From a virus (taxonomy: Duplodnaviria; Caudoviricetes): 64,000 nucleotides of DNA. The notes beneath the pieces are model-generated. The model ran no database searches, had not been told where the DNA came from, and worked only from the letters and a program-made list of their open reading frames with translations. The stretch spans positions 32,001 through 96,000 of the IMG/VR virus record IMGVR_UViG_3300011724_000025; one strand, given 5' to 3'. Position numbers and translations under genes: made by a program. Shown piece after piece: positions 32,140 to 35,722 of this stretch (the first letter of the stretch is position 1; every line of letters starts with the position of its first letter).

Positions 32140-32400
32140 TATAGATCCTCCCTCTATATGCTTACGGACTTGTGACCGCTTGATTTTTGTCAAGTTCATT
32201 AAAGCAGCCATGATAGGCTGCTCCACTCTGCTGATTATTAAGATGCTCTTTGTTGCGTTTGTAACCACTTCTGAAAATTTTTATTTTCTGCCATGTAATT
32301 TTCCATCCATACTACATGCATCTGACCCTCCGTTAATATGGAGTTACCAAACAAATAATAATTCATCTTGCCACCTTACTTTCTAAATCAAATTCGGTTT

Positions 32401-33290: not shown

Positions 33291-34010
33291 TCAGCCAGTA
33301 AATTCCCAAGACGGAATAAATTCTTTCACAGCTTTAAAATCTTTTGGATTTAAATCATGATAGCTTCCAGAGCAATCATACTTTCTTTTGACCTCGCCCC
33401 ATAAGTTCTGGAAATACAATTTGTTATACCGTTTGTATTCCTTTGTGCCCTTGCCACCAAGTAAAAGACAAATTCTTTCTTTTGCAAGACTATATAAAGC
33501 ATTTTGTTGTGCCTTGTTAATTGTTGAGTTATCAATCAAGGATTGAACATTGTCTTTTAGATTTTTGATTTCTTGTTTCAAATCAATGATTTCTCCCTGT
33601 ATGCCGAGAGAATCAAAAAATTCCGCTTTCTTCTCTTCTGTTCCCATAAAATAATTATGAAGAACCTCCTGTGCTTCTAGTTGATAGCGGATAAGTTTTG
33701 CCACAACTGCCGGATTTTCTCGCTGCATTGTAGGTGTTAATGGAAGCTTTGCAAGCCACAACGTCACAAGATCCTCTTTAATTACAAGCAATTCCTGTTC
33801 GCCTCCGTTTGTAAGGTGTCTCAAATTTGTGACTCCTTTACTCAATACCAGATCTTCTTGTACATTCATTACTTGACGTCTGGCCTGTGCGTCTGTCAGA
33901 CCAATGTCACGACATGTTTTTCTTACTGCCAGCCATACTTGACCATTTGTATCTTTGACACCTAATAAGGTATCATTGTAAAATTGTATTTCTTTTACTT
34001 CTTGCTTCAC
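33291..34010 (-). CDS. Phage antirepressor (P22 Ant N-terminal-like plus ORF6C-like domain)
   Basis: VWLAVRKTCRDIGL, LVTLWLAK and YQLEA motifs; C-terminal SYHDL..KDF..V..FI..W. Confidence 0.75.
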   Translation of the reverse strand: MKQEVKEIQFYNDTLLGVKDTNGQVWLAVRKTCRDIGLTDAQARRQVMNVQEDLVLSKGVTNLRHLTNGGEQELLVIKEDLVTLWLAKLPLTPTMQRENPAVVAKLIRYQLEAQEVLHNYFMGTEEKKAEFFDSLGIQGEIIDLKQEIKNLKDNVQSLIDNSTINKAQQNALYSLAKERICLLLGGKGTKEYKRYNKLYFQNLWGEVKRKYDCSGSYHDLNPKDFKAVKEFIPSWEFTG

Positions 34011-34696
34011 TGTATATCATTCCCTTCATAAAATTTTATCTTTAACAGATATTCATGCAAACGAAAAGGCAAGTCATTATTTTATACTTGCGCACTACTG
34101 AAACAACTTGCTTTTATACTGTATCACAGACAGGGAAAGCATATCTATTTTGATTTAGTCTACTACTTGCTACCAATCCAGGTTTTACGCTTTTGCCCGA
34201 CTTCCACAAAATCCTTTTGCCATATACTGTGATGGTGTATTTTCGCTTGCATTGTATAACTGATAAAACTGTGTTACTTCTTATATAAAACAAGCCTACT
34301 GGCCTTAATTCAATTTATTGCTTATTTATTTCTATACCGCTTTTTGTCTGCCTCTATAGGTAGTTGCTTCCGTCTTGCCTATAGTCTTATAGCGGTTTAT
34401 ATTGTCCTGCCTAACGTCTTCTGGTTTCTTCCTACTATCCTTTACGGTATAGCGTTTACATATTTCATACGTTGCGGATTTATTCTGTTTTCAATGTCGT
34501 GTAGGCGGATGCCCTACTCGTGCCACTTCAGCCGAGTGTTCCAAAATGGGGACCATCTAAGAATTGTTTTAGATAAGCGATTAACGGCTTATTGCATTGT
34601 TAATCGGTATAGGTGTTACTAGATTGTAATTCTCTGTTTGATTTGGGAAACTCTCTGCCAGAATTGACAGATTGCAAGAAATGTGATAATCTCAAC

Positions 34697-34937
34697 TTGT
34701 GAATGGTGAGCACATTTCTATGTGTTTCCCTTTGGGATCGGCAGGAAGTTGGTAGCTTCCCGCCTTTGGTGATTAACTTATGTATTCCAGGTACTCGGAT
34801 TCAGTGGCAAATAGTTGGTAGCTATTATTTACGAAACCCATGTAACCGGAAGGAACATAGTAGCCTTTGGGCATTTATATCACCTCCCAATATGTAGTTG
34901 GTTAGGGTCTGGCAGTTGGTAGCTGTCAGGCTCTTTT
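34697..34937 (+). ncRNA. Candidate three-hairpin antisense RNA with GTTGGTAGC loops
   Basis: Loops at 34748, 34814 and 34915 each closed by a stem, the last followed by TTTT; imperfect promoter TTGACA(34664) / TGnGATAAT(34685). Confidence 0.55.
34773..34874 (-). CDS. 33-aa peptide
   Basis: GGGAGGTG RBS; MPKGYYVPSGYMGFVNNSYQLFATESEYLEYIS. Confidence 0.7.
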   Translation of the reverse strand: MPKGYYVPSGYMGFVNNSYQLFATESEYLEYIS

Positions 34938-35396
34938 CCGTCCTAAGTGGGGCAAGTATCATCACTTGTATTTGTTTGTGCCTTCTGAAGTTTCTAAGGA
35001 TACTCTTCAGTCCTTACTCGTACCGACACATGGCACGCTTATTTGTTTTCGTTACCCTTTATGGCAACTTAGGAAGTATCTAGGCTTTTTAATATCAGGC
35101 ACCCTATAATAGGATGTGTTCCCTAGTTTTATTCATTATGTTCGCTCCCTACCTGCATTTTCTTGCCGTTCTACGTAGGTTGACGGCCTCTGAAAAGTGT
35201 TACGCCGTTTTCAACGCTCCATTGCGTGTACAATCTGTTTTTAATGGTAGGTGTACAAGCTACCAGTGATAGCACAACTATGAGGCATTGCTATTCATGA
35301 GCCTATGTCCGTTCATAATGGAAACAAGTGATCCACTTGTTGAGAGCCTAGTCAGGAATTGCACCTGATAGAACGCTTGTCGTTTAGGCTTGTATC

Positions 35397-35549
35397 TTAT
35401 GAATAGTAGTTGTCAATATGGGTTTTGACTTCCTCCATAGTGGTGTAGCCTGATTCAACTATCTCATCAAGGATTTGTTCTACGTCCTCGTTATTTCCGC
35501 CAAGTGAGATAATATAAGAAGTAATTTCTTGTTTGAATTCGTTTGTCAT
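35397..35549 (-). CDS. 50-aa acidic protein, first ORF of the leftward transcript
   Basis: AAGGAGGT RBS; MTNEFKQEITSYIISLGG... Confidence 0.6.
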   Translation of the reverse strand: MTNEFKQEITSYIISLGGNNEDVEQILDEIVESGYTTMEEVKTHIDNYYS

Positions 35550-35615
35550 GGTGTGACCTCCTTGTATGTTACTTGTTTGTGTATTTCGTTTGCCTTACCT
35601 TTATCTTATGTACTT

Positions 35616-35722
35616 ATTATACTACGAATAACGTAGTATGTCAATACTTTTTCGTAATATTTTAACGTTATTTGTACTTTTATTTTAGTTATTTGACAGA
35701 AATACTACGAATAGAGTATAAT
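35616..35722. promoter_or_regulatory. Divergent sigma-A promoters with operator repeats (genetic switch)
   Basis: Minus: TTGACA(35644)-17-TATAAT(35621); plus: TTGACA(35693)-18-TATAAT(35717); palindrome ATACTACG-N5-CGTAGTAT 35619-35639 and half-site 35702-35713. Confidence 0.8.

Follow-up and report, generated by a model that had tools for sequence, protein, structure and literature searches.

A prophage-borne gene for a 33-aa mini-protein is overlain by conserved, strand-specific signals for an antisense RNA, and we somewhat favor the reading that this putative cis-antisense RNA prevents expression of the mini-protein until early transcription has reached its full level. The window, i.e., the whole 64,000-nucleotide stretch of DNA that was analyzed, corresponds to bases 32001-96000 of a 126.6-kb IMG/VR provirus. 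The nearest genome match is a Clostridium sp. scaffold (L283); the host element is a clostridial prophage, and the gene lies within a compact cassette inside its leftward early operon (Table 1). The sequence-only reading of this DNA had proposed a plus-strand antisense RNA over the peptide gene, and this stands as the best reading, as a promoter and a strand-specific terminator for the predicted RNA are conserved in eight loci.

Relatives of the cassette were reached through the neighboring Ant protein and through degenerate back-translated DNA patterns. The eight cassette loci comprise the window and seven distinct others (L242/L410, L411, L438, L482, L283, L284, and L285); they are close relatives, 80-90% identical, and hold about five independent haplotypes of the hairpin hp3. 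BLAST matches to the window extended over 34646-34969 in L283, 34733-34945 in L284, and 34765-34968 in L285, with flanks that were otherwise unlike: a helix-turn-helix (HTH) gene follows the cassette in L283, and other small ORFs precede it in L284. Because the flanks differ among loci, the cassette acts like a mobile unit in a leader of mosaic structure.

Table 1. Features of the cassette and its surroundings (window positions)
Feature	Position	Strand	Description
Antirepressor (Ant) gene	33291..34010	-	Pfam P22_AR_N 2.8e-16, ORF6C 1.9e-13; PHROG anti-repressor
Whole cassette	34646..34969		324 bp; promoter, hp0, hp1, ORF, SD, hp3, hp4; BLAST extent versus relatives
Antisense promoter	34664..34692	+	-35 TTGACA (34664-69); 17-nt spacer; TG (34684-85); -10 TAATCT (34687-92)
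hp0	34705..34730	+	5' stem-loop of predicted antisense RNA; steadier on + strand
hp1	34740..34764		9 bp, one A.C mismatch on + strand; 8 nt beyond stop codon
33-aa mini-protein gene	34773..34874	-	Acidic, soluble; three strands plus helix (AF2)
hp2	34810..34826	+	Weak AU-rich 5-bp stem, TTGGTAG loop; about codons 17-21
Shine-Dalgarno of mini-protein gene	34879..34887	-	GGAGGTGAT; 8 nt before ATG
hp3	34904..34941	+	Antisense intrinsic terminator (predicted); 12-bp stem (34904-34934), TTGGTAG loop, U-tract (TTTT, 34934-37)
hp4	34952..34969		Small hairpin, outer edge of cassette
Leftward early promoter	35616..35644	-	TTGACA-17-TATAAT, 12/12 consensus

The minus-strand ORF with a strong Shine-Dalgarno sequence, described earlier as containing the middle of three hairpin loops, was found as claimed, with hp2 inside it. 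It is intact in all eight loci, where seven codons show synonymous changes only (some with three codons) and five show nonsynonymous, mostly conservative, changes. An AlphaFold2 model built from an alignment of 100 family members reached a pLDDT of 95.1, with a three-strand-plus-helix fold. This coding substitution pattern, together with family membership and the confident predicted fold, establishes the 33-aa ORF as a real gene. The earlier description of the peptide as not hydrophobic is also correct (GRAVY, -0.28; pI, 4.3; maximum 19-residue hydropathy, 0.13; no transmembrane window). A plus-strand ORF across the same DNA (34703-34897, 64 aa) was rejected as a protein gene, as it is not conserved as protein and is truncated in L283; it is judged noncoding because third-position changes of the minus-strand frame strike its second codon position.

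The strongest evidence for a plus-strand RNA comes from the hairpin hp3. Summed over the eight loci, its stem contains 74 Watson-Crick pairs, 20 G-U pairs, and 2 mismatches when read on the plus strand, versus 74, 0, and 22 on the minus strand, and the folding energies differ accordingly (-17 to -21 versus -5 to -12 kcal/mol). Seven of the 12 stem positions vary among the loci, and the roughly 10 transitions observed all keep pairing on the plus strand only, for which the chance is about 2^-10 by our own arithmetic. A U-tract follows hp3 in every locus, in line with the T-tract reported earlier at the end of the last hairpin, and a terminator is called by the scan in L284. As the stem changes preserve pairing on the plus strand and a U-tract follows, hp3 is assigned as the terminator of a plus-strand RNA. 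Its loop is identical in seven of the eight loci (L438 has TTAGCG) even though the stem diverges, which is modest evidence that the sequence of the loop may matter.

A matching plus-strand promoter is kept just beyond the stop codon of the mini-protein gene in 8/8 loci, with TTGACA (or TTGAGT/TTGAAT), a spacer of 16 to 17 nt, and a TG-extended -10 element. A consensus scan flagged the homologous sites in L283 (TTGACA-17-TAATAT with TG, 10/12) and L284 (TTGAGT-16-TAGAAT with TG, 9/12); the window's own -10 hexamer is sub-consensus, agreeing with the consensus at 3/6 positions. The sequence-only reading had called the spacing of this promoter, at 15 bp, suboptimal. A 15-nt register from TTGACA can indeed be read (GATAAT at 34685-90), but it is the register with 16 to 17 nt and TG that is conserved in the sister loci. 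Transcription from this promoter is predicted to start near 34699 and to yield an antisense RNA of about 245 nt, roughly 34699-34940, that would cover the whole ORF and its ribosome-binding site. The plus strand of this region (34699-34942, 244 nt) has a predicted folding energy of -80.9 kcal/mol (z = -2.9), and its minimum free energy (MFE) structure includes all of hp0, hp1, hp2, and hp3; the sense strand is likewise structured (z = -3.7). At the predicted 5' end, hp0 is more stable on the plus strand in 6/8 loci (-5.7 to -8.4 versus -2.8 to -4.1 kcal/mol) and shows one compensatory change, from C-G to U-A, in L482. A long-range helix between 34521-37 and 34793-809 was dropped because its pairing is lost in L242. 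Separately, GGGAAAC (34645-34651) and GTTTCCC (34724-34730) bracket the antisense promoter, and L284 and L285 carry different yet again complementary sequences at these places; the two may form a helix in a long sense transcript.

A further feature of the cassette is a repeated 9-mer, GTTGGTAGC, present on the plus strand at 34748, 34814, and 34915 and absent elsewhere in the window and in the 126.6-kb provirus. Shuffling gave a mean of 0.19 copies in the window, with three or more copies in 0/100 shuffles. The stretch common to all three copies is 11 nt long (AGTTGGTAGCT), so that three 11-mers fall within 175 nt, and every copy of the 9-mer forms the apex of an inverted repeat (hp1, hp2, and hp3). 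Our recount thus agrees with the copies and positions first reported. The accompanying view that these are three equivalent loops of one RNA was not upheld: only hp3 is clearly a plus-strand structure, the hp1 loop is kept in half of the loci, and hp2 is weak and lies in coding sequence. Viral and genome collections (596 Gb) were scanned for two copies of GTTGGTAGC spaced 45 to 75 nt apart, and none of the 237 matches that were listed and fetched was a cassette-like locus. Most of these matches are attributed to chance, since by our own estimate 596 Gb should yield about 500 of them at random; an origin in tRNA arrays was rejected, with tRNA genes at the match in only 2/14 sampled loci.

The hairpins other than hp3 were compared across the same loci. 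The hp1 stem changes on both sides at two positions (C-G/T-A and A-T/G-C), and these two fully compensatory positions indicate that hp1 is a real hairpin. Its stem comprises 63 Watson-Crick pairs, 8 G-U pairs, and 1 mismatch on the sense strand, versus 63, 1, and 8 on the plus strand, so that hp1 seems to pair slightly better in the sense RNA, on the strength of two to three independent events. The hp1 loop is TTGGTAG in 4/8 loci and TTTGAGG, GTTAA, ATTAA, or ACTTA in the others, and the hairpin could end part of antisense transcription early. hp2 has an energy of -3.1 kcal/mol on the plus strand and -0.5 kcal/mol on the minus strand. It is the apex of a long imperfect hairpin made by the whole ORF and appears as an apex in the MFE folds of both strands. 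It is invariant in the eight loci, yet this can be explained by coding constraint. At the outer edge, hp4 is kept as a hairpin in seven loci, and in L482 its stem is wholly replaced by a compensatory stem. Within the sense RNA, a GGUGAU close to the Shine-Dalgarno sequence (34879-34884) is able to base-pair with an AUCACC located directly after the stop codon (34768-73); this pairing appears in MFE folds and in the RNAalifold consensus, with all six pairs invariant. In these predicted structures, the helix could close an ORF hairpin of about 100 nt and sequester the Shine-Dalgarno sequence.

In the mechanism that we somewhat favor, the sense transcript of the mini-protein gene would be read from the leftward early promoter, about 740 nt upstream, while the TG-extended sigma-A-type promoter beyond the stop codon would fire in the opposite direction to give the ~245-nt RNA ending at hp3. 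Once paired to the sense transcript, this RNA would prevent its translation, and the resulting duplex would probably become a substrate for RNase III. Pairing may begin where UUGGUAG apical loops (YUNR U-turn) meet CUACCAA loops of the sense RNA. Against this, ViennaRNA narrows UUGGUAG on the plus strand to a 3-nt loop. Because the same 9-mer recurs on one DNA strand, every antisense UUGGUAG loop is complementary to any sense CUACCAA site, which would allow cross-kissing; the hp3 terminator loop, for instance, could meet the sense hp1 loop or the apex of the ORF. Under this scheme, synthesis of the mini-protein would wait until early transcription outruns the antisense RNA, after induction or infection.

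The peptide is not an orphan: it is a member of a large family, and its more remote relatives there lack the loops. A profile built from five copies matched 510 representative clusters at an E value of ≤1e-3 (best, 3e-18) among 1.84 billion proteins searched; the family thus numbers at least 510 clusters at 50% identity. Where profile matches were longer, the ORF had been called too long and the 33-residue core was the same. Scanning genomes with a pattern recovered at least 120 copies of 32 to 39 aa, nearly all in Lachnospiraceae and other Clostridia. The family consensus is MKGYxVxxGYMGxVxGxYxLFAxExDYxEYxxx, and ten residues are invariant in the 100-member alignment (G4, G10, Y11, M12, G13, Y19, F22, A23, E25, and Y28); the window mini-protein has all ten, shares the length and predicted fold of the other members, and is assigned to the family as defined by these residues and a length of 32 to 37 aa. 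Searches of Pfam, PHROGs, and NCBIfam returned nothing for the mini-protein or ten relatives, ESM Atlas returned only unnamed clusters, fold searches were uninformative (Foldseek, E ≥ 2.9; VIA-align, Z ≤ 3.4), and a literature search for the family motif found nothing.

Most family members are chromosomal genes of Lachnospiraceae that stand alone, without loops. Co-occurrence of the loops with peptide homologues, a check put forward in the sequence-only reading, was seen in part: the close cassette loci keep hp3, whereas distant members lack CTACCAA and the flanking loops. Antisense promoter, hp3, and CTACCAA motifs were lacking in about 100 chromosomal members, and the consensus scan gave no antisense promoter or terminator for the phage-borne members L408 and L409, which lack CTACCAA as well. 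As distant members are without the antisense layout, the proposed RNA guard is specific to this phage cassette, and as the other phage-borne and chromosomal members are also without it, the protein does not generally need an antisense RNA.

These family data bear on the possibility that the cassette is a true type I toxin-antitoxin (TA) system, in which the mini-protein would be toxic and the antisense RNA its antitoxin, with a role in prophage maintenance or abortive infection. We regard this as unlikely. As in bsrG/SR4, bsrE/SR5, and C. difficile phiCD630 CD0977.1/RCd11 and relatives, there is a small ORF of <60 aa with a strong Shine-Dalgarno sequence in a prophage, here with a predicted convergent or overlapping RNA and possible sequestration of the Shine-Dalgarno sequence. 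The cassette also carries conserved strand-specific sequence signals for a putative cis-antisense RNA, namely, a predicted sigma-A-type promoter and terminator. In Bacillus subtilis bsrG/SR4 and bsrE/SR5, the terminator loop makes the first contact and YUNR loops speed pairing (PMC6562991), and the cassette likewise has candidate recognition loops with YUNR, the terminator loop included. Such systems are, moreover, common in clostridial prophages (PMC7699646). Unlike type I toxins, however, the mini-protein is acidic, soluble, and folded, without a transmembrane segment or a Lys-rich tail; neither the promoter scan nor the conserved sites of the locus alignment gave a dedicated sense promoter in the cassette; and the predicted antisense RNA spans the entire gene rather than one end. 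Hundreds of chromosomal homologues also stand by themselves, each with a promoter of its own but lacking antisense signals, which is unexpected for a toxin.

A link to type I TA modules came from two sister cassettes, L241:2886-3222 and L491:7419-7752, which share about 90% identity with the window over the promoter and hp0 and differ in their cargo. Their cargo consists of peptides of 41 to 42 aa and 47 aa, both conserved between the two phages, with maximum 19-residue hydropathies of 2.5 and 1.9, which are transmembrane grade, and the same antisense promoter thus guards hydrophobic, toxin-like peptides. Where the window has hp1, these loci have a strong plus-strand terminator, which is predicted to give a short terminated antisense RNA. 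This layout is that of Firmicute type I TA pairs with 3' overlap, as in Clostridioides difficile prophages (PMC7699646), and by its sequence features the sister cassette is a candidate canonical type I TA module. The same promoter over unlike small-ORF cargo suggests that one antisense promoter guards exchangeable cargo.

The position of the cassette raises a second alternative, that the antisense RNA or convergent transcription mainly gates the whole early operon, including ant, as a lysis-lysogeny noise filter, with the mini-protein as a passenger. The leftward early promoter, the likely source of the sense transcript, is paired with a divergent rightward site (TTGACA-18-TATAAT, 12/12); both lie around 35616-35722 and adjoin two Cro/CI-type HTH genes. 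Leftward from the early promoter come a 50-aa ORF, a stretch of about 1.4 kb with raised G+C content (~42% versus ~30%) and no credible long ORF, and then the antirepressor gene, which this leftward operon carries downstream of the cassette. From the early promoter to the mini-protein gene, the only sense promoter-like site found was one within the 50-aa ORF that agrees with the consensus at 9/12 positions. In P22 and P1, ant is known to be under antisense control (by sar and c4, respectively), and the cassette resembles P22 sar-ant, lambda OOP-cII, and P1 c4-ant in having a predicted small RNA directed against the early operon and an antirepressor gene in that operon. Its place between the early promoter and ant, and the persistence of the promoter and hp0 under swapped cargo, would fit a gate. 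Unlike P22 sar, however, the predicted RNA does not overlap ant or its ribosome-binding site, the ant start (34010) being about 700 nt away. There is no ant within reach in L284, and an HTH gene intervenes in L283; in every cassette the promoter accompanies the ORF regardless of the genes downstream, and unlike sar, OOP, and c4, the cassette RNA moves between phages with the mini-protein gene. We consider an operon gate improbable.

Several features of the surrounding operon were recorded alongside. A plus-strand site at 33955-33984 (TTGACA-18-TAAAAT, 11/12), within the first 60 nt of ant, faces across the ant start and Shine-Dalgarno sequence; by its consensus match, with no terminator seen, it might drive a sar-like antisense RNA. 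A match to the Twister-P5 ribozyme of Rfam (32164-32232, minus strand; 41.0 bits against a gathering threshold of 37.6; E = 4e-5) sits just upstream of a small early gene and is co-oriented with the operon. Comparison with related loci showed the leader around the cassette to be a mosaic of blocks. A stretch of about 400 nt between the cassette and ant (34258-34660), without a conserved ORF, shares 87-91% identity with L241 and L242 and in part (74%) recurs in L283. A 21-nt motif, AGCCTAGTCAGGAATTGCACC (35345-35365), recurs exactly in L241, L242, and L482, directly abutting the cassette in L482; it may mark a point where parts of the mosaic leader join or recombine. Finally, an 80-nt stretch of the switch region (35599-35677) shares 81.5% identity with Clostridium phage c-st (AP008983 3503-3582), the sole match in the phage collection.

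The identity of the repeated loop was also what had suggested a ColE1-type RNA I. The loop identity itself is genuine, with the 9-mer GUUGGUAGC present in stem-loop II of ColE1 RNA I; in a ColE1-type plasmid RNA I (RF00106, 73.7 bits), stem-loop II carries GAGUUGGUAGCUC and stem-loop III carries CUGGUAGC. Like ColE1 RNA I, the predicted RNA has several stem-loops with 7-nt apical loops of the YUGGUAG type; three UUGGUAG apices appear in the plus-strand MFE fold. Kinship with RNA I found no backing, however: cmscan with the RNAI model, which scores the 73.7 bits on the real ColE1-type plasmid, gave no match in 33900-35700 at E ≤ 10, and the locus belongs to the early operon of a prophage rather than to a plasmid origin. 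No Rfam family matched the cassette region at gathering thresholds or at E ≤ 10. Unlike in ColE1, the target would be a mini-protein mRNA in a prophage operon rather than the RNA II replication primer, and of the three hairpins, hp3 alone clearly forms on the antisense strand. We read the loop identity as convergence or coincidence, an analogy and not membership.

Three identical 11-mers within 175 nt could instead be protein sites, for a boxB-type RNA-binding regulator or a DNA-binding protein, rather than kissing loops, and hairpins with identical loops are typical of such sites. This is very improbable, as hp3 folds only on the plus strand and hp1 leans the other way, so that the three are not displayed on one RNA; in addition, the hp1 loop is not conserved and no candidate Arg-rich or coat-like protein was found nearby. 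We give equally little credence to the absence of any functional antisense RNA, with a silent promoter-like site and repeats left by recombination, for although neither the window's own antisense promoter nor its hp3 is flagged by the consensus scan and the surrounding leader is mosaic, a silent region would lack the strand-specific pair conservation of hp3 and the promoter hexamers kept across diverged flanks.

Beyond silencing of the mini-protein until early transcription is fully on, we can speculate, as an unlikely extension, that a TA-like "safety catch" guards a soluble 33-aa effector borrowed from a very large Lachnospiraceae family, deployed early in lytic growth against a host process, and that its UUGGUAG U-turn loops have converged on those of ColE1 RNA I. 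If the antisense RNA is real, the cassette would be a compact, portable "guarded mini-gene" unit whose cargo, a soluble mini-protein or hydrophobic peptides, is swapped by phages beneath a single antisense promoter, and the type I TA design would be widened beyond membrane toxins. The identity with the ColE1 loop likewise raises the question of whether UUGGUAG is an especially good kissing loop. The 33-aa family is common in gut Lachnospiraceae and has no Pfam, NCBIfam, or PHROG model, and the phage copy with its regulator offers an experimental handle on the role of this family.

No Rfam family was found upstream of 18 of the chromosomal homologues. A 16-bp palindrome, GT(C/A)C-N8-G(G/T)AC, typically GTCCgTTTTATaGGAC, occurs in 50/99 chromosomal homologues (L288-L407), 60 to 105 nt upstream of the mini-protein start and often followed by a TG-extended -10 element. 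The palindrome was present in 5/99 downstream regions and in 0/99 shuffled upstream regions, and it looks like the operator of a regulon controlling the mini-protein family.
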